A DNA stretch of 64,000 nt from Nemertoderma westbladi (taxonomy: Eukaryota > Animalia > Xenacoelomorpha): contig JAUCBJ010001800.1 of NCBI GenBank assembly GCA_032718475.1, forward strand, positions 16,862-80,861, given 5' to 3'. The notes beneath the pieces are model-generated. The model had not been told where the DNA came from and searched no databases. It saw nothing but the letters and a program-made list of their open reading frames with translations. A program made the translations under genes and the position numbers. Positions 17,674 to 63,819 of this stretch are shown piece by piece (the first letter of the stretch is position 1; each line of letters begins with the position of its first letter).

Positions 17674-18793
17674 TGTAAAGGCTTTTGCGTAATTAGCTGG
17701 TTATTTTCCCCGTAAAGTACTCTGTAGTTGGTTTAACCAGCATAAAAGGCCGTGTCCTTACTGTATTGTTGTTTTAGAGGACATAAAAGCCATTTCTTCC
17801 ATATGTGTACTTTAGCGGACATGATTAGCAATTCTATGACGCAATAAGCCGGATCCTCTTGAAACAGTGTAGATACCATGACGACGGCTAACAGCTGATA
17901 TTGCCACGTAGAACATCTCTTTGTTCTTTGTTCTCTCTTTGTTCGGTCGACCAATCAGAGCGTTTTTTGCCTCTGTGTTGGAGATAGTGTATAGAAACTA
18001 GGGAAGGGAGTCAGTATGTGATTTTTCCACAGCCTACAACACCGGCGTGGAACCTCCGTGTTTCAGTCTTTAGTCTTACATTAGTAGGCTTAATTATAGA
18101 ACGTATATCCGTTATCAATGCAATGCTTACTGATCATATCAAACTCAGTCACTCATAATCATTCATACCTTAACATTACTGCTTTTACTGTCGGTTATTC
18201 ATTATATTTGTTGATGGAACATTATATTCGGAATACTGATAAACAATCAGACACCCCAATCTTCTTGATATACTAAAGGTTAGAGAGACCGGATACATAT
18301 AACGATTGCGACTTACATTAAGTGGTTTGAAGTGAATCTAATGCTATTTTATAGGCCCTACACGTATTGTCTGTTGTTCTCCTTATATGTGACTAAAATT
18401 AGTGAAGGTCGGCAGATTGGTGTGCAGCATTGTGCAGCATTGTGTATGATTGTGATTGATAACGAAGCATCTCCTAAAGAATGCGCCATATACGTGAATC
18501 TATAGCCATTGTTAATATATATAGCCACTGTTAATATTTCCCGAAAGTGAATAATATTTGTCAGAGATTATATATATTAAGATCAGTCGAATAATACAGT
18601 AGGCCTATCCCGCAATACGATTAGGCTTCCGAATCCAGTCTCCCGGGTATATCCAGCGGGTGAATGATCGCGCATAGACTGGTTTCGGCTAATGTAGTGT
18701 ATCAAATATTTGTCGTAGGCTAAAGACTATCTATTATCTAGAAGACATCCTAATTTGGCAGGTTAAACTGCTAAAGGTCTGAAAGCGCGAACA
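17674..18793 (+). repeat. 5' LTR of element A (1120 bp)
   Basis: Near-identical to 33450-34615; about 6 substitutions and one indel seen. Confidence 0.95.
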
Positions 18794-18814
18794 ATAACGG
18801 ATATAGCTTCTGTA
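18794..18814 (+). promoter_or_regulatory. Non-tRNA primer-binding site of A, complementary to LTR 18095-18115
   Basis: ATAACGGATATA is the reverse complement of TATATCCGTTAT (18104-18115). Pairing extends to 21 nt with 2 mismatches and one G-U pair. No TGG. Confidence 0.7.
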
Positions 18815-19071
18815 TTGCAGTAGGCAATAAAGCTGAAGTACCGGCAACCGGTACCCAGTAGGCCTGACTACCTAACCACCCGGACCGGTACCTAGAGCAG
18901 TACAGGTACAGCAGTATTATTCGATTTTGATTATTATATACCAGTAGGTCTTAATAATTAATCGGGGATGCCTGGTTTTTATTGGGATTTTACTTAGGCC
19001 TATTTCTGTCAGTTTTATTTATTTGTAGGCTAATATTGAGCAGAAGGCGTGTAAGCCTGCTCAGATTGTAC

Positions 19072-19645
19072 AGATAATTTGTAGGCTGGACTGTTGTCTA
19101 ACTGTTGTTAAGTCTGAACGGATTGCAGTGTGTGTAGAGCATCTGTCCGATAAAGTGCTAGTTAGGAACGTAGGGGCTTCAAGTGCTGTGAGGTAAACCC
19201 CCTTTGAAAGAATAAGTCGTACTACTAGGTTAGAACGCATACTAACTAATCATTTCGGAGTCTGCATATACTGTAGTTTATTTAGGCTTGATAGTAGTCT
19301 GCCATCGTTTGGTCTGTACTTTGTTTGTGTAATCTGTACAGGTAGCGTATAATTCTTATTTAGATAATTTGTAGGCTGGATAGTTGTCTGGCTGTTGTTA
19401 GGTCTGAGGAAATTTCGGTGTGTGTAGAGTGTATGTCCGATAAAGTGCCAGTTGGGAACGTAGGGGCTTCCAGTGCTGTGAGGTAAACCCCCTCTGAAAG
19501 AATAAGTCGTACTACTAGGTTAGAACGCATACTAACTAACCATTTCGGAGTCTGCATATACCATAGTTTGTTTAGGCTTGATAGTAGTCTGTCAGTATTT
19601 GGTCTGCATTTTGTTTGAGTAGTCTGTACGCGTAGCGTAATATTT
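19072..19645 (+). repeat. ~290-bp tandem duplication in the leader of A
   Basis: Copies start AGATAATTTGTAGGCTGGA at 19072 and 19362. Confidence 0.9.
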
Positions 19646-20962
19646 ATTATTCAGAGTTTATGCGATTATTCGCAACATTCATTCCCCAAGTTTATTCCTA
19701 CAGTAATTGTGCTTGTTATACATACCGTTATAGTTAAACTAACCCCGGTACTACATCAGGGCTGCTCGGCGTAGGTAAAGACTGGAGATTTTGTGCTTCG
19801 GTCACTCCGGCAGATACCGTGGTTCTTTTGGCTGTTCAAGTATTTTTAACTACCGATTATTTGTTGTAGAAGTACTTGTACCTAATTTAGGGTTTAGTGT
19901 ACAGTGCTTTCCGAAGGTGATTAGCGTGTAGGCAGTATATTTGTGTTGTAAAGTGGTTAATAGGCACGTTGGTTCTGGTAGACCGCGGTAATTAACTTCT
20001 AGGTAGGAACACTCCGTGATACATAACGTAGTACTTATAGCGATACGGCTATAAGTCGTCAGACGGTGGTATTTTTCTATCTGGACAACGCAGTATATTT
20101 ACTACTACTTACTCTGTCCGTTGTAATAACCAGATAATCTAACCCTTTGTTAGACTGGTTTGTAGACTTCTTGTAAAATTACCCTAAAAAATTCGTATAT
20201 GTGTATTTGTAATTTTTTTGTGTTTATTTAGAGATTGTAATCTCAACCCGAATTGTACGTAATTTGTAGTATTAAGTAACTTAGGTAAATTAGAATTATT
20301 TGTTTTAGTGTCCAACAAGTAGCACTTCACTGAGAGCGCACAGCTTCTGTGTAGTGACTCCCCCAGAAATAATAACATTTATTTCAAATATTGACAAAAC
20401 CCATTAAACGGGTATATATATATTATAAATCAACTCAAAGATTTATAAATAGTAGGCCTGCCATACATCAATTAGGTCTAAATATCAGTTGGACTACTGC
20501 TTAAATAACGGTAATAAAGTAAGTTAAAGTAACCAAGTAACCCTTAAAAATTCAGAAATTCAGTTATTCTAAAATAATTGACATACCGGTATTTAACATA
20601 GGCCTATTATATTTATTTCTATAAATTTTAGGCTGAAATTATACCGGTATTCTGTAATTAATTCTAGTCTGTAATTATACTTATATATATACATTATAAG
20701 TGTAAGCTGTATACCGGTATTCACGATAGGCCTATTATATATTTATCAATTTAGGCTGAAATCATACCGGTATTCTGTAATTAATTCTAGTTAATAATTA
20801 TACTTATATACTATAAGCATACCGGTATTCTAATATATTATATATATCACGCTACGCTGAGTAGCAGTATCGGTAATTAATTACTAGGCTAACAGTGATA
20901 CTGAATTACTAGACTTGCTTAAACTGTAATAGAGCAGTAGGCATTCAACTGTACAAACAAAC

Positions 20963-23160
20963 ATGTCTGACACTAAGCAAAACCTGTCGGACAGTCTCCT
21001 AGATACAACCATCTGTGACCCAGACAGGAGTGTGGAACGTGAGGGACCGAAGTTCAATTCACCTCCTACCGTAAGAAAGATCATCCCTCCAGTAGTAATA
21101 TCAGAACCTAGGCTGGTCCAACACCGTAGGTCTATCATAGGCACTCGAGCTCAGGTCAAGCGGGACCAAGAAGCAGCGGAACAACAACAACCCGCAAGCC
21201 AAGAACTTATTTCTCAACGGCCCAACAGCTCCAGTAGTGAGGATACTGTAGAGCTGACACCCGACCGCGGAGCAAAGATGACGGATGCGGTTTATTCGGA
21301 TCCCCTTCTCATCCTTCCTGCAGCCGTACTCACTAGGTTATTGATTGCGGTGGAAGAACACCAGATCGATTGGGCGAGAAGTAAGCGATCGACTAAAGAT
21401 AGTTATGCGGGATATACAAGGGAAGAACTGAAGTCTATTGTCGAGTCGCAATGGAACTTCCCCGGACCCGGACTCCCGTTTGATTTATCAGAAGCTGCCT
21501 GGGAAGACATACACCGGATGGGAGTAGCCAAGGAAACCATCGATCCAGCTGTGTGGAAGAGGTCCGCAGCCGGATACGCACAGGGATTCTTCAGCTCTAT
21601 GGAGCGAGTAAAAGAACAACTGTTTCAACAACCTCAAGGACCTCAAGAGCAGGGATCGCTGCTTTATCAAGTTAGGGAAAGAATTCTACGAATCAGGCTA
21701 ATCTTATCAGCCTTTGAGGAGGCTTCTAAAAGAAGACAAGACACGTCGTTGCAAGTTGCTGTAAAGACTTGGTTTCAAAGGGTGAGTCTCCAGGTTCAAG
21801 GAACGGCTCAGTGGAAAGTTCAACTGGATGAGCGCTCAACCCATGGAGAATCAACAGACGCTACTTTTTCCCAAGTGGAAAGTGAAGCGACGGCAGAGAA
21901 ACCGCATAAGAGGCATGCCATTGACATCTATCTGTCAGACTATCAACGTTTTTTAGGTGATGAAGAGTTGAGGAGAAGACTAGAGGGACTTAGCCCTAAT
22001 AGTGAAGGAGCCAAGCTTGTGTTGGACGCAATCAATGTGGATAGGTTAGCTGCGAACCAAGCTAAATTCAATGAAAGCATCCGCATCGCTAAGGTTCAAG
22101 AAGAACAAGTAAAGAAAAAACGTATAGAAGATAGAAAGACAGCGGCAGTGGCAGCAGCAGTGGCAGAGGCAGAAGCGGAAAGAAAAGCAGCAGCAGCAGT
22201 GGCAGCTGCAGAAGCGGAAAGAAAAGCGGCAGTGGCAGCAGCAGTGGCAGCGGCAGAAGCGGAAAGAAAAGCGGCAGTGGCAGTGGCAGTGGCAGAGGCC
22301 GAAGCGGAAAGAAAAGCGGCAGCGGCAGTGGCAGAGGCCGAAGCGGAAAGAAAAGCGGCAGTGGCAACAGCAGAGGCAGTGGCAGAAGCAGAACGGAGGG
22401 CATCTGAAGAGACAACCCAACTAGAGTTGGAAAATCTTCAAGAGAGGCAAGACAACTTCAATAAACAGTTAACAGCTAGTAATATGCAGATGATGAGTCG
22501 ATCTACTCCCAAAAGACAGGGGTATACATCATCTGAGGAAGGCGATACCACCGATCCTGAAGGCGGAGGAAATCGATCTCGCCTAAGCAGACGTAAAAGA
22601 ATGTGCCACCGTCAGAAATTGCTTGATTTGCCCCCAGCTGTTAGAAGGCAACTAGCTAGCACAGATTTAGGTAGTACAGAACCCACAGACCAAATAATTA
22701 ACATAGAAAGACTCCCTACTATAGTAGATGAGCCTGAAATAATTAGGCCTGTTCTCGAAGCCACCCCTTCGGTGATAGAGACACCTGTACTCCCTGAACC
22801 TACCTCTAAATTCCCTCTGCACAGCACGAAGCTACCTGTGCCCCACAGAACCACCCCTGAAATTGTTCATGTCCTGGACTCCGAGCGAAATATTCATGAC
22901 TTGTCGCCCGTTGTCCCTTGTCCGCCCGCTACAACGTTGGCGCCTCCCGCTTCGGCGGTCGAGTGGTTAGATGAGGGACGACGGGAGATGGGTCTCCTGT
23001 TCGGACAGCTGAAGGAACAACATTCTCGCTCCTCTGGGCAGGCCCAGGAGATGGAGGGAACTGTGCAGCAGTTAAAGGGAACAATTAGAGAGAGTAGGTT
23101 AGAGTTGCAAGAAGTGCAGCAAAGTATCGCGCTAGAACGCGATACCCAAAGAGGTGAGGT
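20963..23160 (+). CDS. gag: Element A gag N-terminal region (coiled coil, AAVAxAEAERK repeats), cut by an inversion
   Basis: Long ORF after the leader, with Ala/Glu/Lys repeats at 22140-22400. Codons past 23160 are inverted sequence. Confidence 0.7.
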
Positions 23161-24131
23161 CTCTATAGGGGTGTCGCGAACAGGCGGCGGCGGACTCGTG
23201 AGGGTCTGGGGGCACGTTAAATACTCTATATAGTGCAGGGGAGTTACTGAAGGCCCTCGTGTCTTGCGAACCATGAATTAACATGGTGCCGTGGTACCGT
23301 CTAGTCGGCCTGTTGCCGTACTGCTAGTCCTGTACACAGTAGGGGTGGTGGCTTAGTGTGATCTGTGGTTTGTGTGTGTACGTAGTATACGTGAGTGTGT
23401 GTATGGCCACTGCGAGTGAGTGTGGGAAACCTTGCCGGTTGGTTCAGTCGCCGCCGGTTATTAGTAGGACCATATCTTTACTGCGCCCCAGCATACTTTT
23501 TGCACACAAAGTTATTTTGCCCTGACGGCAAAATAAGGTACTCTCGGCTCTTTATTAGTCGATACAATTTTGTCCCCTCTGATTTTGTCACCGATTTTGT
23601 CTTCCCCGATTATGTCCTCTGTGTGTGCATGGTATGTGTCCGATTTTGTGTTTACCGTTGTGTACTTGATTTCGTGAGCATCTATTGAGTACACGTGTAC
23701 AGTGACTAGTAAGTGGTGACTTGTTCTTAGCTTTTAAGCTAGTCAGTATTGTTGGCGGAACCGACTTCCCCTCAATACTGCCGGCGAGGCGGGTGAAAAC
23801 GGTCAATATTCCATGTTGGGTAGCGCAAGCCCACTTGGGACAAGACCGTCGGTTTGGCTCAAGGGCGACCTTGATGCTCGATCGCTATCGACTGGTTCAC
23901 CCGCCGGTTGACTCTCTGAGTTGGCTCAATGTACAGTCAGGCCACAGTAAGTTGACAGTAGGCGAACTTGGGTGGAAGTTCGGCTACACACGACGAGCTG
24001 TGCCGGTGTGATCGGGGGATTGAAAATTGAACCTGGGAAGCATCGGGCTACCCTCCGGCCCGGTCTGATAAAAACGGAGTCAGACTGGCCCCAAGGGTGG
24101 TGGGACAGCGTCCGCCTCATGGGTGCGCCTC
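23161..24131 (-). other. Internal ~970-bp inversion within gag of element A
   Basis: Strand composition flips. Re-inverting gives an in-frame join …PVRDTPIE|EPRRTQ…. Short inverted duplications GAGG and TAGAG sit at the breakpoints. Confidence 0.7.
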
Positions 24132-24428
24132 GTAGAGGAGCCCAGAAGGACGCAAGCGAAATTAGTAAACACACAAAAGGGTATACCACCACCCCCTGTA
24201 ACAATGTGTCAACCCGTTAGGTCTGAAGTATCTCATGCGCAAGGTGTGGAGCCTACACGCATCTATACTGCTAGCGAAGTAGAAACTCCTATAGTAAACC
24301 CTATTAAGGGTAATTATAGACCTGTTGATAGTGATATTCCCTATAGACCTGATCATAATCCGAGAAATTTATATACCGATAACTCGATATTAAATAACAC
24401 GATGGCCCAATAAAGTTTTACGCGTCAA

Positions 24429-27400
24429 ATGGCTAGAACCGAAGCCCGCCAAGCGGTAAAGGTGGGAGAGATAGTCAAGTTCAATGGATATGAGATGAAA
24501 TGGTTACCTTTTAATGAATATTACAAAGATAACATACAGAACTCTGTGCTATCTAATGGAGAGAAACTTAGATTCCTCATCGAGTGCTTGGAAGGATCTC
24601 CTAAGTTAATGGCGTTAAAGTTTATTGGACATCCAGACGGATTAAGACAAGTTTGGGATACACTAAACATCAGGTATGGTAATAGGAATAACATAGCTGG
24701 GTATTTGTATGCAAAGTTGGTAGCGCCCCGAAAGTTTATTAGCAGCGGGATTATAGAGTTTTCCGATGAGATTCAGGAGATCTGCAGACAATTAGATTGG
24801 CTAGGTAAGTCTCATGAGTATCAGAGTGCTATGGTTATTAGAGCAGTGGCTTCTACTTTACCGAAGGGTGGAGTAGGTACACGCTGGGACAAGAAAGTGT
24901 TATATATGATGGAACAACAACAACGAGACCCTACCATGGCTGATCTCATGTCATTCTTGGATGGCGAAGTGAAATTACAGCTCATAAAGCAGTCCAGAGA
25001 GAAGACAACGGAAAACAAGGTAAGTGAGAAACCCGTCTCTAGGAGAAAGGTAATACCAGTGTGTTATACAGATGACGGCGAAAGCCAGACTTCCCAAGGA
25101 GAGGATAGCGGGAAAGACACTGAAAGATCTTATTATGTCAATAAAACGCCTAAAGACCAGGTAAGTAAATTCAAGTCTCGAACCAATGACAGGAGAGAAC
25201 AGGTAAGAAAAACTCCTCCTACGTCTCCCAAGAGAATTCAGGTGAGAAAGCCCGAAGAAAGAACGAGTGTGCACAATTTTATTCAAAATAAGGTAAGTAA
25301 CATCAAACCGAAATGTGCGCTATGTGACGGGACTCACCGTTTGAATATGTGTGATGAATTCCTGAAGAAATCATTAGCGGAGAGACGGGAAGTCATGTGG
25401 GATAAGCGGTTGTGTTATAATTGCCTCAGACAAGGACACCAACGGCGAACCTGTTACTCCGACACAAGGTGTGCAAAGTGCGGTGCGAAACATCATATCT
25501 TGTTGCACACTGAATTCGAGCGAAATAGTCCGAGTCAGGTAAGTGATTCCGAACTACATGTCCAATTCAGTGATGTGAACGACACTGATCAATCTGAGAT
25601 GGAAGGATTCTATACGGACGAGTTCTCCGACGAAAACGAATCCTGTTACATGATAAATACCGCAGTGTATCGAGCACTCACGTATGAAAAAGATATAGAC
25701 AGCGACCTCACCCTAACTACTTCTGATCGACAACCATCTTGGAAAGCGCCATCTTCCAATGTAGGAATCCGAGAATTTCCTGTAGTACAGGTAAGGGTCC
25801 ACGGACCTAAAAGGAGTTATGTAGTGAACGCCCTCCTTGACTCCGGTAGTACAGGAACATTCATCGACAAAGAACTAGCCGAAGACATCTTTGCTGGACA
25901 ACCCAAGTTCCGAACTAAGCTAAACATGTCAGGAATTATGCAGGTTTGGAAATCTACAGTAATCGCGGATTATTATGTAGGTGCGTTGTCCACCCCCCAG
26001 GATGAACTAGGAGAACATAGTATAAGGTCAGTAAAAATGGTGGCGATAAAGAACTTCGCTACCACTCAAGTGGAACCTTATAACTGGGATGAGGACGATT
26101 TCACCCAGCAGCTGGAAATACCTAGATTCAACACCGATTACCCTGGAGTGCAAATACTCATCGGTCAAAACGCGCATGAAGCGCTCGAGACATTGGAGAA
26201 ATGGCCCGCTCAACCGCAACCACTACAAGCTTATGCGGGAAGAACTAGAGTGGGTTGGTACTTTACTGGCCCTTCCCGTAGAACTCTCATGGAAAGATTA
26301 CCGAAAGACCAGGTATGTCAAGTGAGAGAATGGGAAGTCGAGAGCAGTGAGTTAGACGATCCAACTGAGGGAACACCATACTCCTCAGATAATGACGATG
26401 TCCACCAACTTTTTGACGAGGAGAATGCCATCGATCTCCTTAAGGAAAACGAGACTTGGCAAAACCAAGTGAATTTATGTCAACTCCTTCTTCCATCAGA
26501 GCGAGACGACTATAACGACGAGCTTAATGACGTCATTGAACGTTATAATGCCAAGACTCGGGACGAACACGCCGTACGATTCTTTACTCAAGAGGCTGTA
26601 GAGCCCAATTCCTACGATAAGGCCCTATCGGTAGAGGAAGAAAGAGCCAAGCAGATCCAAGAGACAACTACACGTTTTCTTAAAGATCAAGGTAGATATG
26701 AGATCGGTCTACCTTTCCGAAAGCGAGAACCAAAGTTTGTAAACAACAGACCCTTGGCGGAGAAAAGAATTGCTCAACTACATCGACGCCTTACGGCAAA
26801 TTCTTCAGCTAAAGAAATGTATCAAACGCAGTTGAAGAAGTTTATTAGCAAGGGATATGCGGAGCTAGTACCGGAAGAAACACCTATAACTGAGAGAACG
26901 TATTATTTAACTCACCATTATGTTCCCAAACCCGGTAAACCCCATGAAGTACGAGTGGTGTTTGACGGCTCCGCCCTCTATATGGGCCAATCCCTTAATT
27001 CTGAATTGTTACCCGTACCCAACTTGCTCCAATCATTGTTGGGAATACTTTTAAGATTAAGACAATATTCCATTGCTTTCGCCTCAGATATAGAAGGCAT
27101 GTTCTTACAAGTCAAAGCGCTGGATAGGGATCGAGATAGCCTACGATTTCTGTGGTGGCCTGAAGGAGACCTCAACCAGAAACCGGTGGAGTACTGGATG
27201 ACCATCCAAGCTTTTGGGATAATCTCGAGCCCTTCAAACGCCTGTTCCGTGGTGCGCACCACTGCGGATGACAACCGAGACGCCTTCTCTAAAGAGGTGA
27301 TTGACAACATTAAGCGGGATATATACATGGACGACAATCTAAAGTCCCTTCCATCAGTCAAAGAAGCCATTGATGTCGCTAAAGGAACGGTAGAGTGCTT

Positions 27401-27497
27401 AAAAAGAGGTGGATTTCGATTAACTAAATTCACCAGCAACTCCCGTGAGTTTCTGGAGTCGATGATCGAGATCGAGGAGCAAAAGACCTGGATCTAA
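24429..27497 (+). pseudogene. pol: Element A gag core (DUF1759-like), 3 Cys/His knuckles, aspartic protease, RT (ends in a frameshift)
   Basis: KFNG...W..F, CALCDGTHRLNMC / CYNCLRQGHQRRTC / CAKCGAKHHILLH, ALLDSGSTGTF, RVVFDGS, SDIEGMFLQV, IYMDDN. Confidence 0.9.
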
Positions 27498-27643
27498 TAA
27501 AAGATGATCTCCCAGAAACTAAGACCCTTGGTTTGAAATGGGACACCGAAAGAGATATCCTGTTTTTCCAACTAAAACAGCGAGATAATCCAGTTCGGAC
27601 TAAACGGATTTGTTGAAGTATCCTGAGCACTTATTTTGATCCA

Positions 27644-28657
27644 TTGGGATTTATTAGCCCAGTTATATTGATTGCTCGGAGTTTAGTACAACAAATGTGG
27701 CTTGAAAACCACTCATGGGACGATCCACTTAAGGGAGAGTTGTTAAAGAAGTGGATGAAATGGGAAGATTCTCTACCAGCCATCGAGAACTTTATAATTT
27801 CCCGTTCATATTTTGGTCATGTTCTCCCTACGTATTCCTATCAACTCCATGTGTTTGGAGACGCCAGCGATATGGGAATAGGTATAGTAGCCTACCTAAG
27901 GGTGGAAACTCCGGACGGAATCAAAGTCGCCTTGGTTACTTCTAAGGCATTGATAAACAATAAGTTGAAAGTTCCTCGAGCGGAGTTAAAAGCGGCTCTA
28001 TATGCTACAGCCATCAGCCGGAATGTAACAGAACAGATCGACTATCCACCAGAGAAAACTGTCTATTGGACCGACGCTTTACTCGTGTTGGAGTATATAA
28101 CCAATGAAGTCTGTCAGTTCAGCGTCTTCGTTACCAACAGAGTAGCCATTATACTCAGTCGCACAACGATGGATCAATGGAGACATTGCCCCAGAACGAT
28201 TAATCCAGCAGACATTGCCTCCAGGGGAGCAACTCCACAAGAACTGGTAGACACTCCAGACTGGTTAGGTGGACCCGACTTCCTCTACAAAGAAGAAGAA
28301 GAATGGCCTCCTCATCTTACTACCACAGAGATTAGACAGGCCAAGGGAGCGGAGAAAGTCAAACCTAAAACTCGGGCGAGTAAATCGAAGTTATTCAAAC
28401 CTATGGTAGATCTGTCTGTACTACATACTTCCGGAGACGACGCTTTGGATCAGAAACCCACAGCCACAAATAAACTTGTTGTGGAAATCCGTGAGAAGGA
28501 TTGGAAATCTGGAATACCAGACGTCTCGCAAGGACTCTCACCTCTTCTGCAGAGAGCGATACATCACTACAGTTCCTGGAATCGACTCTGTAAGGCCGTT
28601 ACATATTTAAAGAGATGTTTTCACCATCACTACTCCGGGATGAAGGCCAAAAGGTGA
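27644..28657 (+). pseudogene. pol: Element A RNase H (Pao peptidase A17 region)
   Basis: FDPLGFISP upstream, LHVFGDAS, PRAEL.AA, YWTD, WRHCP..INPADIASRG. Confidence 0.9.
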
Positions 28658-28676
28658 TACCACTCCAATAACATCA

Positions 28677-30206
28677 GTGCAGATCCATGTTATTAAAGAT
28701 CTTCCCAAATATAAGATACCCGACAAGTTTCTGAAGGAGAAGATCAGTTATCAGGAGCATGAAGAAACCAACAAGCAGATGCTGAGACTCCTGCAATGCT
28801 ATGAAGATTCCGATAAGTATTTCCAGTTGTTGAGAAATCCACAGATGCGCTTAAGGGATCGTTTCTCTAGCACAATGATAGATGGGTTGATACGTGTTGG
28901 AGGAAGATTAACGAATGCTCCATTATCCTTTGACACTAAGTTCCCCATACTCATTAGAAATCTTGAAATACAAGTCAAGATGATTGTAGATGTTCACAGC
29001 AAACTTTATCATGCTGGTAGGGAACGAGTTCTTAGCGAAATTCGAACTCGCTATTATTTTTATAAACCCCATAGAGCTCTGAACCAAGTTCTTAGGAACT
29101 GCATACCCTGTAGGAAAGCATTCAGTAGGCCTTTAACACAGCGAGAGGCAGAATTACCTAGGGAACGAGTAAGCTTCTATGAACCACCCTTTACTAATAC
29201 CGGTGTGGATTTATTTGGCCCTATTGAAGTATATCGTGCTAGGACTATTGTCAAGAGATGGTGTGTAATCTTTGTTTGTATGACTTGTAGAGCTATCCAT
29301 CTCGATATGGTGAACGATTTATCGACCAACAGCTTCCTATTAAGCTTACGACGACAGATCGCTCGCTTTGGCACTAGTAACACGATGAGATCTGATAAGG
29401 GAACTAACTTCATTGGTGCCAACAATGAAATCAAAGCTTACGTCAAAGATTGGAACCAAAGACAGGTGGACGATCAGCTACGAGTAACAGCGTCTAGCTG
29501 GACCTTCAACGCCGCCGACGCCCCTTGGTGGGGAGGAAGTTGGGAGAGATTAATAAGAAGTGTGAAGACAGCATTTCACTTTATAGTGCCTTGCCGCGCG
29601 TATCTCACCGACGAACTTTTGCGGACGTTAATGGAGGAAATCGCCGCCTATCTCAACGAGAGACCGCTTATGCCAGTCTCATCGAGTCCCGATTCCCTGG
29701 AAGCGCTAACACCCGCGCACTTCCTACTGAAGAAACCTGTAGCCATGCTACCACAATCGGAAATCACAGACGGAGACGAATACTGCCGGCAAACTTGGCA
29801 ACTCATGCAGTTGTTATCCCGTCGTTTCGCTGATCATTTCGAAAAACATTATCTGCCCACGCTACAACTTCGAACTAAGTGGTTTGCGCAGCAAGAAAAC
29901 GTCAGCGCTGGAGACATGGTTCTTATTGTGGATGTAGATCTTCCACGTAAGCGGTGGCAGACAGGTCGTATCATCGAGACTCACATCTCGGATGACGGTT
30001 TGGTGCGATCGGTAGAACTCGTCGTCATGCGACGTAACTTCAAGAAACCGGGAATTGTCTTCGAAACGCAGCAGCTCAATCGCCCAGTTGGTCGCTTATG
30101 TTTACTGGAAAGAGACAGAGAACTCTCCGGAAACTATGGGAGGCAAGATACTCTTCCCACGACCACCTCCCTAATCCAACAAACATATAGGGACTCCCCA
30201 GCTTAG
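28677..30206 (+). pseudogene. pol: Element A integrase plus DUF5641-like C-terminus
   Basis: RVGGRL, H..HAG...C..C, GVDLFGP, SDKGTNF, GGSWERLI, LTPAHFL, DGLVRSV. Confidence 0.9.
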
Positions 30207-30744
30207 TAGCATATGGAGTGGGTGTGTGACCATATTATTTTATATTCTTATTATTTTATATTTATGTATGTATTATTATGTAATTTTATTATAATCGTTT
30301 TATTTAATTTTATTTAGTAGCATGTTATTTTAGCGATTATTTAGTAGATTAGTGCAATATGTTCGCGTTTATTACGTAATTACTTATATTATATATTTAG
30401 TGCGAATGCAAGAAATAATTATTTTCTCTTTCCTTACTGCCCGTATTACATTACGAATACGTAACTACAGTAAGATGAAATGTCCGTACTTATTAAAGTA
30501 CAATAAAGCCACTACTATATTCAAGTATTATTGGTAGGCAGAGTATTAGGAATGCAAAGTTCAGATCCTCGTGTCTCGGCTAAACCAAGCTCTGGGTAGA
30601 CCTTGGAAACGACTTGCCTCTTCACACTGACATTGCTTCGTGCGATATTGCTCTCATACCGTATATTAAATAATACATATAGTAGCGTGATGTCCCTTTA
30701 ACAGTAGCGTATAACGCAAAATAAATCTGTTAAACCCTTTGACC

Positions 30745-31015
30745 ATCTGCAATTCTAGTCGATTAAGATATCGCGGCACCCACCGATATACTTGAAAGAC
30801 AAAATTCTAGAATCAGTGGTTAACGTCCCCAGACAACTGGAATAAACTGGTGCCCATCCTAAATATTAATTATTAATATTTACAAAATCTGTCAAAATTT
30901 AGATCCTTTAAAATTCTAGTCGATTAAGATATCGTAGCACTTACCGATACTCTTAAAAAGACAAATTCCTAGAATCTAGGATCCCAGTCCCCAGACACGT
31001 TCTGGAATAAAATTA
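30745..31015 (+). repeat. ~160-bp direct duplication in the pol-ORF3 spacer of A
   Basis: AATTCTAGTCGATTAAGATATCG…GACAAA…CTAGAATC…TCCCCAGACA…CTGGAATAAA occurs at about 30751 and 30912. Confidence 0.8.
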
Positions 31016-31847
31016 CGTTTATTTAACATTAAATAATAAAATTTACGGGAATAAATTTAAATTCATATATTTCAATGAATTTAATAAATTGTCATTTTAT
31101 ACAATTTATAACATTCCCAAAATTCCATTAATTAATAGATCATGGGAGCGGAGATTCACTCTATTAAGTGTATTGGTGTGCGAGAATCTCCAATATATAG
31201 TCAATAGCCGATAAAATTCATAAAATCATGTATAAAGAGAAATATTGACAATTAAAGAATTACTATTAAATAGCATCCCAGATCTGTATGCATGAGAATT
31301 ACCCTAATTCTACCGCTAGCTTTCCATAATGTCACCATGGCAACAACCACGCTAGAATTAGAAGTGAGTTAAAAGAACAATAGAAGGCTTGCCCCACTGA
31401 ATAGCATAGGGAATAAATAGCGCACTGCTAGTATCCAAAGATACATAATAAATAAAGTGACATTCTGGAAGGTACTTGACTAACGGACAAATGACCCGAA
31501 TGTGTGATAGAATGTGTACCATTTGTGACAGTTACGTGGAATTTGTGCGTTTGTAGGTGAATGTTACTACTAAGTTGTGTTTACAGTAGTGAGTCGCAAT
31601 TGTGAAAGTAACGCTAACTCTCCAGTAAGAACCTGAAGTACATCTAAGCCTTTGGGACGGACAGTGGAGTGACTTGTGCCAGTTATTGTTGTCGTTGTGT
31701 AGCTACATCGTTGGCGAAAGCACAGCGACGACGGTACATCGGCGCTGAGGATCTTGCACTGTCCGGGGGCAAAAGAGGGGTAGGCAGCGACGCCCGCTAG
31801 CCTAAATATAAACTCATTATAATATTGATAATCTCATATAGCAGATA

Positions 31848-33369
31848 TGACTAAGTTGATAGAAGATGATCTTGGTATCAGGGAGCGATATACTCTAAGT
31901 TTACAAACGTTTGTTGATAGCTTGATACGCGGCGACGCTGGTCCAACTACTACGGAGGACGATGGTCGTTATATCTAAGCGCCAATGTCCCGGGAGCAAC
32001 TTGCGCGTGGGTTGGACTGTAGAAAATTCACCGCTCGCTGTGCGCGTCGTAAATGGTACGTATATGGACTTCTTAACTACTGGTCATCCTATCGACCTAC
32101 ACGATACGAACGATATAGACACCAAAAGGGAAATGGTTTTATTTAAATATCATACCCAGCGGAAGCGGAACGATAAACTGAGACTCGAACACGAAAATTC
32201 TATTCGAAACCGACTCGAAAGTGCAGATGTTGAAGAGCCGGATAAACGCAGCGACTTCACCAAATACCTGGAATTCTTGAGAGAAACCTATTTCGATATT
32301 ACCAGTCAACAGAATCTAGAAACTCGATATCCTCAAGGTATACATCATGACCGCATGGTAGAACTCAAACGGCTCTATTCCACTATGATGTATCTTACCG
32401 CCGATCGACCGCTACCTGTTGTACCGGATAGCTTCGAACAGATGGAGGAATATTGTAAAACTGGAGAACGATCACCCACGTTTCCCCTACAAGACGTGCG
32501 TCTTTAGTATTATTGCAATGAATGCCCAAGACCCAACCAACAAACGAAAAGACATAAACATCCGCGGAGACGTTGCTTTAAACACGGTTTTACTCGCTAT
32601 ATTTACGGGAGTTTCGAGCGAAACTTGTTCGATGTATCACCTACGCTCGTTCGACTCGGACGATCCTTAAATAAACCAATGATCAGAGTTTCGGAATACT
32701 CGATCAGACCTCCTCATTCCCTAGTGAGACCTCAGACTCTTGATCCTATTAGTATGACGGATCCTCCCGAGCTGTACTCACTGCTCAAAGATCTAGTGTT
32801 ACCTGAACAATTAGTCGGTGGCACCCCGGTTGTGGGCTTCCTAGATATTAGCCCATCCTACCTAGCCGGATTGGGACGCGGACATTTAATATCGCCGTTT
32901 AACCCTTACCATCGTCCCGGCTTAACACGATATAACCTGTCACCAAAGTGGCGGAGAGCATTGTACCAAATGAGTTAGACGCTATTCTACAAAGATCAGA
33001 AAAGGAACTTATGCTTGTTCAGATAAACGTAAATTGCACTAGCAAGTCCAAGCGGTAAACAAAGTAACTATATCTCAGTTCGATCGGGAAATCCAGAATC
33101 TCTAAGAAGTTATCGAACTTGGACGACCCTATTCTCTGCGAGAGTTTTTGGATGAACGTATCCAGCTACGAGGAGGAAAATCAGCTCGAGGAGAAGCATA
33201 TCGAAACGGCGGATACCCCGACCATAATCCTACACCTTCTGATGCAATCATATTGCACCCTTCACCCAGGATTTATAGCCCTCCTAGTAAAGTGGCTCGC
33301 CCCAAAGAGAAAAGGACTCTTGCTAGCCTCAAAAAACTGCGTAAACGCCGTCCTCGTAAGAAAGACTAA
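31848..33369 (+). pseudogene. Element A ORF3 (disrupted), homologous to the N-terminal domain of element B ORF3
   Basis: 31962-32507 and 32625-32978 are in the same frame across a TAG. ELKRLYSTMMYLTADRPLPVV..F..M..Y + YYCNEC…RCFKH aligns with B ORF3. Basic tail KKLRKRRPRKKD. Confidence 0.65.
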
Positions 33370-33449
33370 CTGTTTAGAGTAACTTTATATTTTAGAAACT
33401 GTGATTTGTTATATTTTATAGACTTAATAATCCCATTTTCTGGGAGCGG

Positions 33450-34615
33450 TGTAAAGGCTTTTGCGTAATTAGCTGGTTATTTTCCCCTTAAAGTACTCTG
33501 TAGTTGGTTTAACCAGCATAAAAGGCCGTGTCCTTACTGTATTGTTGTTTTAGAGGACATAAAAGCCATTTCTTCCGTATGTGTACTTTAGCAGACATGA
33601 TTAGCAATTCTATGACGCAATAAGCCGGATCCTCTTGAAACAGTGTAGATACCATGACGACGGCTAACAGCTGATATTGCCACGTAGAACATCTCTTTGT
33701 TCTTTGTTCTCTCTTTGTTCGGTCGACCAATCAGAGCGTTTTTTGCCTCTGTGTTGGAGATGGTGTATAGAAACTAGGGAAGGGAATCAGTATGTGATTT
33801 TTCCACAGCCTACAACACCGGCGTGGAACCTCCGTGTTTCAGTCTTTAGTCTTACATTAGTAGGCTTAATTATAGAATGTATATCCGTTATCAATGCAAT
33901 GCTTACTGATCATATCAAACTCAGTCACTCATAATCATTCATACCTTAACATTACTGCTTTTACTGTCGGTTATTCATTATATTTGTTGATGGAACATTA
34001 TATTCGGAATACTGATAAACAATCAGACACCCCAATCTTCTTGATATACTAAAGGTTAGAGAGACCGGATACATATAACGATTGCGACTTACATTAAGTG
34101 GTTTGAAGTGAATCTAATGCTATTTTATAGGCCCTACACGTATTGTCTGTTGTTCTCCTTATATGTGACTAAAATTAGTGAAGGTCGGCAGATTGGTGTG
34201 CAGCATTGTGCAGCATTGTGTATGATTGTGATTGATAACGAAGCATCTCCTAAAGAATGCGCCATATACGTGAATCTATAGCCATCCCGTTGTGTCTGGT
34301 TTAAGTCATAACTCTGTTTATATATTTAAAGCGCCACGTCCTAAAGGAACTGTTAATATTTCCCGAAAGTGAATAATATTTGTCAGAGATTATATATATT
34401 AAGATCAGTCGAATAATACAGTAGGCCTATCCCGCAATACGATTAGGCTTCCGAATCCAGTCTCCCGGGTATATCCAGCGGGTGAATGATCGCGCATAGA
34501 CTGGTTTCGGCTAATGTAGTGTATCAAATATTTGTCGTAGGCTAAAGACTATCTATTATCTAGAAGACATCCTAATTTGGCAGGTTAAACTGCTAAAGGT
34601 CTGAAAGCGCGAACA
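33450..34615 (+). repeat. 3' LTR of element A (1166 bp), preceded by short PPT TGGGAGCGG
   Basis: Direct repeat of 17674-18793, followed by TSD AGATC. Confidence 0.95.
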
Positions 34616-37148: not shown

Positions 37149-39053
37149 TATAGAATTATATTCTCTAAATGCCGTGGATTTTCAAAATTTTTATTTTATT
37201 CGAATTAACTTTGTTAAAAGATTACATTAAGTCCTCATTTGTATTTGCTATATCTATTTGTACGATGATTAGTCAAGTGGTTCAGTAGCTCAGTCGGTAG
37301 AGCGTTGGAAATTATATGTAGTGTGTATTGAGTTCGAATCCTTATTATTTTTTGTGCAGAATTTCAACTCATTTAAATTGACCGCTACAAATTAATTGCA
37401 TTTGCTCGAAGTAAGATTAACCAATGAGACTGTAGTTATTAGATTGTAACCAATGTCGTACAAGTTATATATTTGCTGGACCAATAGCTATCTTTAAAAA
37501 CCTGTTAGAACTCATAGAACAATCGAGAATTTTCTCGATTGATTGCGGCACAAATTTGGTATAAAAGGTGCGATTTCGTTCATTAGTTATATATCTAAAT
37601 CAGATTATATCTAAATCTCAGTCTATATCTCAATCATTCGTGATTTAGATTATCTTTATCTATTAGTTTCTTGTTACGTTTATGTATATCTTCTGTAATA
37701 AAGTCAGAATTATCGCTAATCTGCCCTTTTTCTATCTGTTCTACTATGCTTCACCACGGTGAACTCAACTGAGGGACAGGATGGCTGGCTAAACATCGGG
37801 CCACAGCAATGAACGGGAACATCTAAGGAATGTAGACAGGAGACAACCCGCAATATCACTCTTAGTTATTCGCCCATCGCCTGAAAGGTTAGACAGCGTT
37901 CGATGCCTTGCTACCTAAGTATAAGACCAAAGATCGAAGGTAGAGGTAGTGACACGCTGTACGCCTAAAATTACATCTAGGGACTGTACTGTTTTAATTC
38001 GGGAAAAAACCGCAGTAGACCTTCATATTCCTACGGGGGGAGAGCAGGCAGAGATACTAGTACGCAGATAGGACGTAGGCACACCGGTACAAAGCATACA
38101 CATTGGTAGGGTGCAGCAAACTGTACGCCTAACTCTTGCTAAGTACAGGTGCGTCTGTGACTATTTGTAGTACAACGGTGTCCATTGCATTAGAACTTGT
38201 AGGCCAGGAGGGTTACTGTGTTTCACCTGAATTAGGATTGTACCGTTCAGGCGGTAGGGCAGTTTACGACTAGGCGCAAATAAATTGAGGCTAATTAGGG
38301 ATACTAACATCTACCGTGTCCCCGCCGACATCCTGATAGGAAGTTACCAAGCCCACCTAGGTAACCAAAATTCTAGATAGGACGCCAGGCTAGCTATTAG
38401 TAACCGTACGCCTACTGTAGTAAACTAACACATTTCTTCTTAGCATTAGGGACCTGGTAAATTAAAATTGCCGAATTCTGGGCGTAGCATTAACCTTATG
38501 CCCGAATTTGAGTCCTGGAAATACGCAAGAGGGGAAGGAGCCTTATCATTCGTGAGTATTGGACCTACAAGTTACAAAATTAGAATATTCGTAAAATGCA
38601 CACCGTACCCAGTAATTATATATATGAAGGAGCAAAACTGATCTTGACGGTTCAGAATTAACACACGCGAGTTAGAAATTATTTACACCTCAAAATATAT
38701 AAAATTAACTTTTGTCCGTACTGCACTTTGCCCGCTAGTTAGACATCTCCAGATCTCTGCACCTAGCTAGCGTCCTTTTCGCCCAACCATATAAATCACA
38801 CCGCGGCAAAGTATACGAGCCCCTTAGTCCGTCAGTGAGTCAGCCTGATTTTAGGATTCGCTGCGCGGGATTTTGTTTTATCGAAGTTTGTCCGTTCGTA
38901 GACTGTTTTCTGCCTCACCGGTTATAAGAGACCGATACTGCAATATATTCGCTTACTTGGAGTTTACTGTTTTGGTGATAAGGTCGGATTTATGATTTGA
39001 TTCACAAACTCTACAGTAGGATATTGCAGGTATTGTTACTGTCTCTTCATTTA
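37149..39053 (+). repeat. 5' LTR of element B (1905 bp; termini TA…TA)
   Basis: Direct repeat of 53854-55769. TATA-like TATAAAAG at 37560; AATAAA at about 37697 and 38279. Confidence 0.95.
37279..37353 (+). ncRNA. tRNA-like Pol III cassette (A box, B box, T-tract) inside the LTR of B; second copy at about 53985-54069
   Basis: TAGCTCAGTCGGTAGAGC (D-arm / A box), GAGTTCGAATCC (B box), then a T tract. Acceptor and anticodon stems do not pair well. Confidence 0.55.
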
Positions 39054-39072
39054 GTAGGAATATGAAGGTCTA
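39054..39072 (+). promoter_or_regulatory. Non-tRNA primer-binding site of B, perfectly complementary to LTR 38016-38034
   Basis: GTAGGAATATGAAGGTCTA is the exact reverse complement of TAGACCTTCATATTCCTAC (38016-38034 and 54732-54750). Confidence 0.8.
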
Positions 39073-39633
39073 AAGTTATTTGAAAATTTTTGTATTTTGA
39101 GGTAAAATTTATATTTGATTAGCTAAGTGCTAATTTTTTGAAATAAAATTTGATTTGAACCGCGTGTAAAATATTTTGCAATTGAATACCGGTGTTTAAA
39201 AGGGTTTAAATACCATATTGTACCGGTACAAAATTTTCGTAAAAGTAAAACCTAACTCTTTTGTTTTTCAGGATTCAGAACTCATTTCTAGACTGTAACG
39301 AGAGCAAGACCGTGTTTAGCAAGTTTGGGAGATAGATAACCCAACAACTTTGGTTGGGAAAATCGCACTTCGTCCGCAACGCTGGAAACGGAAAGGTTCA
39401 CGTCCGGTTTGTATCTGGGAATCTGTTTTTCTGGAGAATTATTGGAGTGGGTGAGTTTGAAAAGTTGCATAAATAAGTTAGGCATTACCGTATTAGTTAA
39501 AATTATTGTGGGTTCCACTGTCTCAAGTATTTATGCATTCTGTACGATTTCTTTGTTCATTGCTGAATTAGTCCGTATTATTGTATTTAATTTACATTTT
39601 GATAACGCATATCGTTATCCGATTTATTTGTTA

Positions 39634-39757
39634 TAAAATTGGCCGCTAGGCTAATTTTATTATATACTTATTCCGTGACATTTATTTGCTGTAAAATTGG
39701 CCGTTTAGGCTAATTTTATCCATCTGCTATAAAATCGGCCGGTAGGCTAATTTTATA
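39634..39757. repeat. Three palindromic hairpins AAAATTGGCC-NNN(N)-AGGCTAATTTT in the leader of B
   Basis: Copies at about 39634, 39693 and 39731. Confidence 0.7.
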
Positions 39758-39842
39758 TGACTGTAATTAGTACCGTTTTGATATAAATACGGTAAATTTG
39801 ATACTTTGACACTCACATTTTACTTGACTTACAACTACCGAA

Positions 39843-42800
39843 ATGAGTGACAAACAAGACTATACGAAGAATACACCTACCGACTATGACTCATGTGACG
39901 CGGATAAGTCAGCAGCGGAAGAACTACAAGGGAAGACTTGTGAGCCTACCGAACCTACACCGTGTGCGTCACCAGTACATCCAACGGGAGTACCGGATGC
40001 CGTAGTACGAGGCGACGGCAGGACTGAGGATTTCCTAACGGTCCCGCAACCTAGATACAGGGAAACGGAGATGGTAAGTTCAGTAGGAAGCACAGAAAGT
40101 GTGGTTAGAAGCGTCGGAGGCTACATGGCGCATATTACTAGGAGTATTGGAGAAGGCCAACGCGTATTAGACGAGTTGACCGCTCCGATGTCTCGATTCG
40201 AGTTCTACACCCTCCAGGTTAGAGTACAAAGTAGAGTACATAAGTACGTAGATAATCTAATTGGTCTACAAGATCTAGCTAGACAGAGACAGGATGTGGA
40301 TACTCAACTTAGAATCCTCGAGAAACTAATGATCGCTAGAGAGAAACTGATTCAGTTTAAGTCGACGATTAGGCAGATACAACAGGAACAAGCGGACCAG
40401 TTGTTAGGTGAGTCAGTTTCGGACGAATTATTGCAGCCCGAGGAAGAACAGGAACTGTACCGACTGGATGGACAATTGAAACATCTGACGGACCACTTAC
40501 GTATGTGCGGTGAAGACGTCGGCGATTTGGAAACCGTGCCGGAATATACGAGGGAAACTTCACCCGTACAAATCGAATCGGCACCGGGAATACTGGACCA
40601 ATCGTTAGTGAGTATTGGCGAGGTAAGTATAGTGACGTCAGAAATTTCCAGACAGCAACAACAGCACTATAGACAACAACGGGAAATTGAGGAACAAACT
40701 CAACTGTTGACGGTACAAGCGGCGGTAGAAGAAGAAAAACTACGCGTTGCAAATGTTGCAAGAATCTCTCATCTGCAAGAACAAGCCGAGTTGGAAGCAG
40801 CTGAGATGGAAAGGTTGGAGCTAGAAATAGCACAGCGAACAGCGGCAGCTGAGTTAGCGCAACAAGCGGCAGCAGCTGAGTTAGAACGACGAGCGGCAGC
40901 AGCTGAGTTAGAACGACGAGCAGCAGCAGCGGAACTAGAGCGACGAGCAGCGGAGTTGGAAGAACACAAGCGAGTTTCGGAAGTAAGAGCTGAGATGAAA
41001 AAACGGCAAATAAAGGCTCAATCAGCTATACGACAAGCGGAGTTCGAGGCGCAACAACAACAGACGGAACAACGCGAGAAAGAAGTTAAACTTCATTTCG
41101 AACTCGAGAAGAAGGCGAGAGAATTAGCCAACGCGAAGGAAGATCTGGATCTACAAGCCCGCGATCGATCGATGAGATCTCGTGACGGACATGATTTGGA
41201 CCAGATAGAGGTAAGGCACCGCCAAATTCAGGAACGAATGAAGGAAGGAAGTGTAGGGGCACCTGGGCGAGAAAGACAATTAGTTAAAGACTTATGTCAA
41301 AGATTCCCTCAAGTAACTCCTATGTTTGCACCAGTTACGACTAAGGAACCTGTTTCGATTGCTGGTAGTAGTAATATTTCTCCTATCCATGGTGCGACGG
41401 AACACAGGTTTGTTATTCCGGACAAGTTTACACCGCCAAGAGCAACGTCATCGCCTATTCTGAAAGTCAAGGTAAGTAACCCACCGATTATAGATCGTAG
41501 TAGTTTGTTGACCAGACCTGCACTGCTGACGACTAAACAGGTGAGTCCACCTTTGACACCAAAACCCGTTACGCACTACACGTACCCAATGACGTTTAGG
41601 CCTACAAGGCCTTTAGATTCAAACGCTGTCATTCGACCACCGTTTAATCAGTTTACATCGCAATCTACAACTTCGAGGAAGACTTGTGAGCCTACCAAAC
41701 AACGGAGAACAGTGGATACGCGACCGTTTAATCAGTTTACATCGCAATCTACAACTTCGAGGAAGACTTGTGAGCCTACCGAACAACGGAGAACAGTGGA
41801 TACGCGACCGTTTAATCAGTTTACATCGCAATCTACAACTTCGAGGAAGACTTGTGAGCCTACCGAACAACGGAGAACAGTGGATGATGTTCCGAAACGG
41901 AATGTTAGAATTCGAACGACACAACGGACGCGAGCACGTCGACCAACATATCCAGGTGACAGTAGTACTTCAAGCGAGTCGGATTACCCGGAACGCGAGG
42001 TATTTAGAACAGGAGCGGCCGACGAATATAAACGTGAGCGTTCAGATAACTCCTTTATCGATAATCCTCCACACAATACACCAACACAGAAAGCGTTACA
42101 ACCAACAGACGCGATTAGTACGCAACAATTCGCCGATCTAATGCGACCAGTTGTAGACAAGTTGGCCCAGATAGAAGAACGTTTAGAAGAAACTCAAACT
42201 GATAGTTCGCGAGGTAACGAACACTCTAGACACCCGAAGCAGCAAAGAAAACAACCCTCGAGAAACACCTCGTATCAAGGAAAAGCGCCAAGACGAGAGA
42301 ACATCAACTCGATTGCCAACCAAGGACGCGAAACTTTGAACGTGGCCGAGGAGATAGCAAAATTTGCAGCGAGACAAGGACTACCGGTGCAACAACCACT
42401 GAAGTTTTCCGGTAACTCGAAACATTGGCACACCTTTGAGGACTACATCGAAACACAAATAGCAGCGTGCGCCTTTACATCAAGGGAAAAATTCAACTAC
42501 CTGCTACAAACGCTGACGGGAGAACCGAAACGTTTAGCGGAGACCTTTGTCGGTGTACCAGACGCCTTCGAACTAGCGTACGATCGCTTAACTTCGATTT
42601 ACGGAGGCACCGTAAGCATGGCTAAGTCAGTCATAGAAGAACTCTGTAAGGGGGGGGCTATAACAAAACCCGTTGACTTACTGAAATTAGCTGACGAGAT
42701 TAAGAACGCCATTACTACACTACGCTCGATTGGACAACTTGACTACGCGAACACTCCGACAGTCCTATTGAAAATAATAGGAAGATTACACCATCGACTT

Positions 42801-42860
42801 CGTCGGGAGTGGCGAAAGATAGAATATCAGCGAGAAGAGAGGAGAAGAGCGGATTCTTGA
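39843..42860 (+). CDS. gag: Element B gag (coiled coil plus DUF1759-like core), ends at a frameshift
   Basis: PLKFSGNSKHWHTF…EKFNYLLQTLTGEPK. Contains AAAELERR repeats and an 84-bp x3 repeat at 41635-41885. Confidence 0.85.
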   Translation: MSDKQDYTKNTPTDYDSCDADKSAAEELQGKTCEPTEPTPCASPVHPTGVPDAVVRGDGRTEDFLTVPQPRYRETEMVSSVGSTESVVRSVGGYMAHITRSIGEGQRVLDELTAPMSRFEFYTLQVRVQSRVHKYVDNLIGLQDLARQRQDVDTQLRILEKLMIAREKLIQFKSTIRQIQQEQADQLLGESVSDELLQPEEEQELYRLDGQLKHLTDHLRMCGEDVGDLETVPEYTRETSPVQIESAPGILDQSLVSIGEVSIVTSEISRQQQQHYRQQREIEEQTQLLTVQAAVEEEKLRVANVARISHLQEQAELEAAEMERLELEIAQRTAAAELAQQAAAAELERRAAAAELERRAAAAELERRAAELEEHKRVSEVRAEMKKRQIKAQSAIRQAEFEAQQQQTEQREKEVKLHFELEKKARELANAKEDLDLQARDRSMRSRDGHDLDQIEVRHRQIQERMKEGSVGAPGRERQLVKDLCQRFPQVTPMFAPVTTKEPVSIAGSSNISPIHGATEHRFVIPDKFTPPRATSSPILKVKVSNPPIIDRSSLLTRPALLTTKQVSPPLTPKPVTHYTYPMTFRPTRPLDSNAVIRPPFNQFTSQSTTSRKTCEPTKQRRTVDTRPFNQFTSQSTTSRKTCEPTEQRRTVDTRPFNQFTSQSTTSRKTCEPTEQRRTVDDVPKRNVRIRTTQRTRARRPTYPGDSSTSSESDYPEREVFRTGAADEYKRERSDNSFIDNPPHNTPTQKALQPTDAISTQQFADLMRPVVDKLAQIEERLEETQTDSSRGNEHSRHPKQQRKQPSRNTSYQGKAPRRENINSIANQGRETLNVAEEIAKFAARQGLPVQQPLKFSGNSKHWHTFEDYIETQIAACAFTSREKFNYLLQTLTGEPKRLAETFVGVPDAFELAYDRLTSIYGGTVSMAKSVIEELCKGGAITKPVDLLKLADEIKNAITTLRSIGQLDYANTPTVLLKIIGRLHHRLRREWRKIEYQREERRRADS

Positions 42861-44632: not shown

Positions 44633-44706
44633 CCTTAAGACGTTTACACTCAATACGACAACGTCTATTAAAGGACGAGAAAGCCCATCTGCAGTATAAT
44701 ACTCAG

Positions 44707-61627: not shown

Positions 61628-61631
61628 AGAC

Positions 61632-63700: not shown

Positions 63701-63819
63701 ACCCCCCATAAAGAAAAGGAACCCAAAAAATAAACGTTATTTTTTTTGGTTACTTTTTATTACGGCGGTTCTACTTTATGCAACTTATGTTCATACTTTA
63801 TATTATATGTAAAATAAGT

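Follow-up and report, generated by a model that had tools for sequence, protein, structure and literature searches.

BEL/Pao is one of the three big superfamilies of LTR retrotransposons in animals, and priming by a tRNA is only assumed there (PMC8742986). In the ICTV description of the family (Belpaoviridae, Semotivirus) the primer binding site (PBS) comprises 18 nt for host tRNA-Arg or tRNA-Gly, genomes measure 4.2-10 kb and LTRs 0.2-1.2 kb, and replication is called poorly understood (PMC8742986). Self-priming has been described for Tf1/sushi and Tcn1, both Ty3/gypsy chromoviruses, in the passages of two papers that treat it (PMC10085805, PMC4600332). In Tf1, according to the relevant part of the source, the PBS is paired with the first 11 bases, which an RNase H cut separates from base 12 (PMC7175516). 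For the TAR lineage of plant Ty1/copia elements (Houba, Osr-1) self-priming was predicted, in the section of the paper on these elements, from a complement of at least 10 bp located 0-5 bp after the LTR (PMC6317226). A literature search, with Repbase, supplements and subscription journals outside its scope, found no description of BEL/Pao self-priming or of a spliced self-primer in the portions of text returned, and term look-ups in three BEL/Pao papers found no PBS discussion in the passages retrieved (PMC554778, PMC6238403, PMC3118150).

The window, i.e., the whole stretch of 64,000 nucleotides that was analysed, contains two BEL/Pao elements, A and B, in which the sequence directly behind the 5' LTR is complementary to a segment of the same LTR.

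Elements A and B and their family

The LTR pairs of A and B were found by self-comparison of the window, and their ends were set by the target duplications. Element A has the following features:

17674..34615, + strand, element A, a BEL/Pao LTR retrotransposon of 16.9 kb with broken coding region and target duplication AGATC
17674..18793, + strand, 5' LTR of A with TG..CA ends; 8 substitutions and 3 gap runs compared to the 3' LTR
18095..18101, + strand, anti-PBS of A, second helix
18104..18115, + strand, anti-PBS core of A, predicted self-primer with 3' end AU, then CA
18794..18805, + strand, PBS core of A, flush with the LTR end, no TGG
18808..18814, + strand, PBS of A, second helix
20933..30206, + strand, gag-pol of A in several broken frames: DUF1759, Cys-His knuckles, protease, RT (YMDD), Peptidase_A17/RNase H region, integrase, DUF5641
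31926..33382, + strand, remnant of an extra ORF of A with homology only to the N-terminal part of ORF3 of B
33442..33449, + strand, polypurine tract of A
33450..34615, + strand, 3' LTR of A, carrying a copy of the anti-PBS core at 33880-33891

Element B lies further downstream:

37149..55769, + strand, element B, BEL/Pao, 18.6 kb, with TA..TA ends and target duplication CCTGA, inserted in the RNase H region of a third BEL/Pao element
37149..39053, + strand, 5' LTR of B
38016..38034, + strand, anti-PBS of B, 19 nt with 3' end AC; copy in the 3' LTR at 54732-54750
39054..39072, + strand, PBS of B, flush with the LTR end, no TGG
39828..48696, + strand, gag-pol of B in three frames, with RT (YVDD), RNase H region and integrase in one frame of 1355 aa
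49239..53051, + strand, ORF3 of B, 1270 aa, with a weakly DEDDy-exonuclease-like domain and zinc knuckles
53854..55769, + strand, 3' LTR of B

Since the 5-bp AGATC duplication and the TG..CA ends fix the LTRs of A, 18794 is the first base after the LTR. Both insertions are recent, as each LTR pair differs by 8 substitutions and few gaps. The termini of B read TA..TA at both ends, not TG..CA, which is a symmetric change of the integrase recognition ends; they are fixed by the CCTGA duplication inside the coding sequence of the third element, C. This element is a decayed BEL/Pao relative of A (59% identity; 36336-37148, 55770-57598 and 61629-63740), interrupted by B and by a small gypsy element, and no LTR of C was found within the window.

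By protein sequence A and B belong to BEL/Pao, as seen from domain content and order and from RT-RNase H homology. Both have DUF1759 and Cys-His knuckles in Gag, the order PR-RT-RH-IN, Peptidase_A17 and DUF5641. The LTRs, target-site duplication and polypurine tract of the family are present, with TA..TA rather than TG..CA ends in B. The RT-RNase H search gave 1415 matches at E <= 1e-30 among 7991 scored; the 120 matches listed all carry PF05380 at 38-43% identity, and the closest named database proteins among the matches listed are mostly from marine invertebrates. A and B share 44% pol identity and form, together with fragment C, one long branch (support 1.0) against 113 homologs, in trees that were midpoint-rooted without outgroup and did not include the named BEL/Pao reference elements Sinbad, Sparrow, Surcouf, Suzu and Tas. 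Long-branch attraction may be the cause of this grouping.

The ORF3 of B aligns with DEDDy exonucleases over 65 columns (hhalign 64.6%, E 6e-5), which is a weak assignment. The best PDB match of the exonuclease-like domain is EXD2 at E 0.74, no Pfam match was obtained for ORF3 itself, and structure models reached a pLDDT of 30-33 and were unusable. Homolog searches yielded no more than 4 weak representatives, of which 2 extend across the exonuclease-like region. In an alignment of 3 sequences D-x-E and a later D do not vary, and the ExoIII D is not conserved in B. The exonuclease-like domain is absent from the remnant at 31926-33382 in A. ORF3 has three zinc knuckles, and the unnamed proteins P0122 and P0124 show the same layout.

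Several other features were observed around the elements. The 2.1-kb leader of A contains two tandem copies of about 290 nt that are 88% identical (19072-19655), and an uninterrupted F-box ORF of 481 aa (15032-16477) lies 1.2 kb upstream of A. A repeat of 1.1 kb and unknown kind (94% identity) occupies 1-1135 and 34854-36003, outside the coverage of run X1; the copy at 34854-36003 was considered as an LTR and rejected, as no intact leader follows it. The U3 of LTR B holds a tRNA-like segment (37270-37345; about 53975-54060 in the 3' LTR) with A-box- and B-box-like motifs and a T run; it is unrelated to the PBS and was called neither by ARAGORN nor by Rfam. ARAGORN reported 0 tRNAs, and Rfam over 17000-57000 gave 0 matches at E <= 1 and therefore no known ribozyme.

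Pairing of the PBS with the LTR

No TGG is present directly after LTR A or LTR B. In A, bases 18794-18805 are the exact complement of 18104-18115 and its 3' LTR copy, and past a 2x2 mismatch 18808-18814 pairs with 18095-18101 (7 bp, one G-U). This pairing had been described in the earlier note, and the coordinates all check. The computed energy of the duplex is -22.5 kcal/mol. A 12-bp run anchored at +1 was obtained in 3/2000 dinucleotide shuffles of the LTR, and the score of the full 21-nt pairing was matched in 0/500. The run at +1 is the sole one of 12 bp and the best among 14,626 internal offsets, and none of 300 random internal 40-mers paired with the LTR as well as the PBS did. In B, 39054-39072 is a perfect 19-bp complement of 38016-38034 (0/2000 shuffles), with a sequence unrelated to that of A. 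The two elements have both retained such a duplex at a pol identity of only 44%. In both elements the pairing starts exactly at the first base after the LTR (offset 0), as had been claimed. The small gypsy element in the same window (57599-61627; LTRs of about 210 bp, 99.5% identical) served as a control and has an ordinary TGG site and a self-complement of at most 4 bp.

Chance, or a one-off inverted duplication by an RT error, is hardly credible as the origin of these sites. The AT-rich 12-bp match of A taken alone does appear in a few shuffles, and both copies are broken elements. However, the 19 bp of B, the match exactly at +1 in both and its repetition in 23 related families with different letters speak against it. 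The judgement that chance is unlikely was thus borne out by the shuffles (21 nt in A, 19 bp in B) and by the related families.

Two further statements on the LTRs held in part. The anti-PBS had been placed about 40-46% into the LTR, and it is found at 39.5% in A and 46.5% in B, but this percentage position is not a conserved feature among the relatives. The LTRs had been said to share no visible similarity, and over their whole length it is indeed not significant (115/200 shuffles as high), whereas one segment picked after looking, 18094-18251 of A against 37560-37708 of B, aligns marginally (14/500 shuffles).

A splice junction that improves the duplex was searched for in both elements. In A there were 0 candidates, and among the joints listed none of the GT..AG type lies inside the LTR; in B only weak donors giving 2-4 extra pairs were found, and the junction was rejected. 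In the 3' LTR of B (54732-54753) the AG after the anti-PBS forms a pyrimidine-rich, splice-acceptor-like site, with a G as the first of these bases in the 5' LTR. One contig of run X1, whose contigs are of uncertain kind, has 2 differences at PBS core positions, which counts against the self-primer, and 18106-18161, with most of the anti-PBS core, lies outside X1 coverage.

Related loci and the geometry of the pairing

With an RT alignment of A and B 85 loci were fetched: 80 from metagenomes, the best among 457 confirmed matches there, and 5 from genome contigs; three scans of viral contigs gave no loci. In 12 loci the LTR end is fixed by a direct repeat. Neither a TGG nor a contiguous 11-bp complement was present in any of them (0/12 each). 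In ten of the 12 the element's own LTR contains a GT-AG intron, and the PBS is perfectly complementary to its exon-exon junction over 11-13 bp; the remaining two are decayed, with 10 of 11 positions paired. A complement of at least 11 bp across an LTR splice junction was found in 33/85 loci, compared to 7/600 in a shuffle control run on 15 loci. Many of the other loci, of which a part was inspected singly, are uninformative, as they have no LTR or leader.

Clustering at 85% identity left 20 usable families, without L052, whose upstream LTR matches another family, and inspection added three to give 23. All 23 pair with their own LTR and none has a tRNA-type site. In 21/23 families the paired LTR segment spans the splice junction of a GT-AG intron within the LTR, and in two (L029, L082) it is contiguous; in the tree these two sit among junction-type families, and A+B are a third contiguous case. 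Some loci needed individual treatment: in L084 the acceptor of the junction match lay beyond the LTR, and rescoring gave 10 of 11, the repeat of L085 belongs to a different element, and L063, by eye a decayed copy, was mis-parsed yet kept in the 22-row counts given below, which it weakens. L081-L085 are BEL/Pao elements in contigs deposited as bacterial genomes; animal host DNA that entered the bins is the most likely source. In the sub-clade of L012 and L073 the LTR closes with a stem-loop immediately in front of the PBS, which recalls a U5 inverted repeat. The design of A and B had been proposed to be lineage-wide, with related elements lacking the enrichment named as evidence to the contrary; in the related loci the result went the opposite way.

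The geometry of the pairing was compared in 22 rows, consisting of 20 families, A and B. Over core positions 1-11 own pairs match at a mean of 10.8 of 11 positions and cross-pairs at 5.5 (0/10,000 permutations), and at position 12 pairing falls to 9/22 rows. The core starts 0-6 nt from the LTR end. The base pair at the primer 3' end is C:G in 20/22 rows and T:A in the other two (A and L003), so by the last base the primer ends with AC in 20 rows and with AU in A and L003, and the next base is C in 16/22. The three families resolved later all end with AC followed by C. A second helix is formed by the 14 nt upstream of the core and the 14 nt downstream of the PBS core (0/20,000 permutations versus cross-family pairs). 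Its signal holds without A and B and vanishes beyond the 14 nt next to the core; taken singly, 8/22 rows (A: 16/300) and one of the three later families are at or below 5% of shuffles. In B the second helix is fused with the core, giving the 19 bp. As the families are related, all these permutation counts overstate independence. Flanking duplexes of the Tf1 type were not detected, since the post-primer sequence shows no excess pairing with the U5 end or with the post-PBS sequence (3651 and 4840 of 5000 permutations).

Core length, primer end and location upstream of the poly(A) signal are the conserved features. In most relatives the complement appears to arise only when an intron within the LTR is spliced out. 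The 22 rows contain 18 different 11-mers, each matching only its own LTR. This bears on the idea that the duplex is a regulatory leader structure, e.g., a splicing-coupled switch for packaging, dimerisation or translation, and that a host RNA, for instance a fragment of a tRNA, is the real primer. Retroelements often have leader-U5 pairings, and the PBS of one sub-clade resembles what we take to be a tRNA T-loop motif; both count for such a structure. But no single set of host RNAs would track the different 11-mers, and the core lies within 6 nt of the LTR end, where a primer must sit, without a TGG site. We consider this explanation improbable.

Predicted promoter signals, proposed origin of the primer and known systems

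Promoter and poly(A) signals were predicted in both 5' LTRs:

17990..17997, + strand, TATA-like box of A, predicted promoter, 126 nt upstream of the primer end, with an initiator-like motif at 18011-18016
18238..18243, + strand, GATAAA of A, possible variant poly(A) signal, 122 nt after the primer end
37920..37927, + strand, predicted TATA-like box of B, 115 nt upstream of the primer end
38279..38284, + strand, AATAAA of B, 244 nt after the primer end

AATAAA is absent from LTR A, and LTR B has a second TATA/AATAAA pair at 37560/37697. Among 15 families examined, 14 have AATAAA or ATTAAA 7-119 nt after the primer end, and in 5 a TATA box precedes the donor by 34-224 nt. The spacing of the poly(A) and TATA signals would place the anti-PBS in R. 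In L079 a TATA lies 34-36 nt before the donor at 1169; it is the only family whose TATA spacing would start the transcript at the first base of the primer, and it also lacks a second helix, which would be expected if the primer were 5'-terminal and strictly of the Tf1 kind.

The segment of A that aligns marginally with B (18094-18251) corresponds to the upstream TATA..AATAAA block of B. If this alignment is taken at face value, the anti-PBS of A would lie over the TATA box and that of B in U5, and neither fits priming in cis. The conserved second helix, however, appears to argue against reading the alignment in this way.

Our preferred reading is that A and B probably prime minus-strand DNA with a piece of their own RNA, the 5' R copy placed on the PBS, and not with a tRNA; it draws on sequence and on the analogy to Tf1. 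In place, polarity and length the duplex corresponds to a primer, and its 3' end points into U5. Transcription would start about 85-100 nt upstream of the primer end, which puts the anti-PBS in R. The 5' anti-PBS copy would then fold onto the PBS with a core of 11-12 bp and the second short helix. The RNA would be cut immediately 3' of the core, behind AC or AU and in most cases with C as the next base, to leave a 3'-OH at 18115 in A and 38034 in B. The cutter may be the RNase H of the element's own RT, as in Tf1. RT would copy U5 and the rest of R and then jump to the 3' R copy. Most relatives would have to splice the LTR intron to assemble the primer, of which A and B would be the intron-less form. 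The geometry in 23 families with different letters thus supports the lineage-wide priming mechanism proposed in the earlier note, with priming itself inferred. With tRNA primers, plus-strand synthesis copies the primer into the next PBS. If this applies here, the covariation would be partly automatic, and the 19 bp of B could be a longer copy event.

Equilibrium folding gave different results for the two elements. In B the core duplex has a probability of 1.0 for transcripts from 37945 and of 0.27 from 37586. In A it forms in only 0-4% from the predicted start at 18015-18020, and values above 0.9 are reached only if transcription begins at 18080 or beyond. The second helix and the TATA-like boxes speak for an internal primer; a transcription start near the primer would agree with the folding results for A and with the position of the TATA in L079.

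The long-range fold, disfavoured for A, is not needed if the primer comes from another RNA copy, i.e., if the PBS is bound by a short capped LTR-only transcript (spliced in the relatives) or by the 3' R copy of genomic RNA, which would then be shortened to the end of the duplex by trimming or by a cut. This would also account simply for introns surviving in both LTRs, as in L073 and L078, whose intron-bearing LTRs are 99% identical, because the genomic RNA can stay unspliced, and it agrees with a poly(A) signal close behind the primer. In B the exonuclease-like domain of ORF3 could do the trimming, and its resemblance to DEDDy exonucleases and EXD2 given above counts in favour. However, that assignment is weak and the models have low pLDDT, A lacks the domain, the relatives are mostly elements of 6-7 kb, and the fixed AC/AU end before C or G would suit an endonucleolytic cut better than trimming. 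A primer from another copy is the main rival but seems unlikely to us. Taken together with our preferred reading, priming in cis, it makes a self-encoded primer of either kind very probable.

A wider picture can be drawn, which we put forward tentatively, at a little below even chances. A large animal BEL/Pao clade would have left tRNA priming for a self-primer in the R region, normally spliced from an LTR intron and cut after AC, so that the start of reverse transcription is coupled to splicing. A and B would be a giant intron-less branch with pre-assembled primer, and the captured exonuclease/zinc-knuckle protein of B may help to mature it.

Such a self-primer in BEL/Pao, if true, would mean that tRNA-free priming arose independently once more, besides Tf1/sushi and the predicted TAR case, here with an internal and usually spliced primer. 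For Cer7, a BEL/Pao element of C. elegans, a tRNA-like primer encoded by the element itself has reportedly been proposed. This would be a precedent for a self-encoded primer in the superfamily, although Cer7 is said to use a tRNA mimic and not an R-region duplex.

Compared to the ICTV description of Belpaoviridae, A and B are alike in LTRs, polypurine tract and the content and order of gag and pol domains; they differ in the self-complementary PBS in place of a tRNA-type site, and with 16.9 and 18.6 kb and LTRs of 1.1 and 1.9 kb they are outside the described sizes (PMC8742986). They depart from the family description yet group with the family by protein sequence. With the bdelloid rotifer elements Juno and Vesta, as far as the relevant part of the source describes their DEDDy-type ORF3, B shares an extra ORF after pol with exonuclease-like motifs (PMC5408684); in B it has 1270 aa with zinc knuckles and only a weak match, and A is without the domain.

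With Tf1/Tf2 and Tj1 of fission yeasts, and with Tf1/sushi and Tcn1 in general, the locus has in common that no tRNA site is present and that a PBS beside the 5' LTR is complementary to an LTR segment with a core of about 11 nt, according to the sections on priming in the sources (PMC7175516, PMC4600332, PMC10085805). A PBS complementary to the element's own LTR over at least 10 bp, 0-5 nt after the LTR, is taken as a mark of Tf1/sushi self-priming, and A and B have 12 and 19 bp at offset 0. However, they belong to another superfamily, with BEL/Pao domains and no chromodomain found, the three-duplex pretzel was not detected, and most BEL/Pao relatives need splicing for the primer. The complements of A and B also agree with the rule used for TAR copia elements, which are plant elements and for which the part of the paper concerned describes neither an intron nor a second helix (PMC6317226). 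The site of A and B would operate in the manner of Tf1 self-priming, although the elements do not belong to the Tf1 group. LTR finders that require a tRNA PBS would miss elements of this type. What the locus adds to the known systems are two divergent, very large intron-less members, and contiguous and spliced forms that appear to share one two-helix geometry and one predicted cut site.
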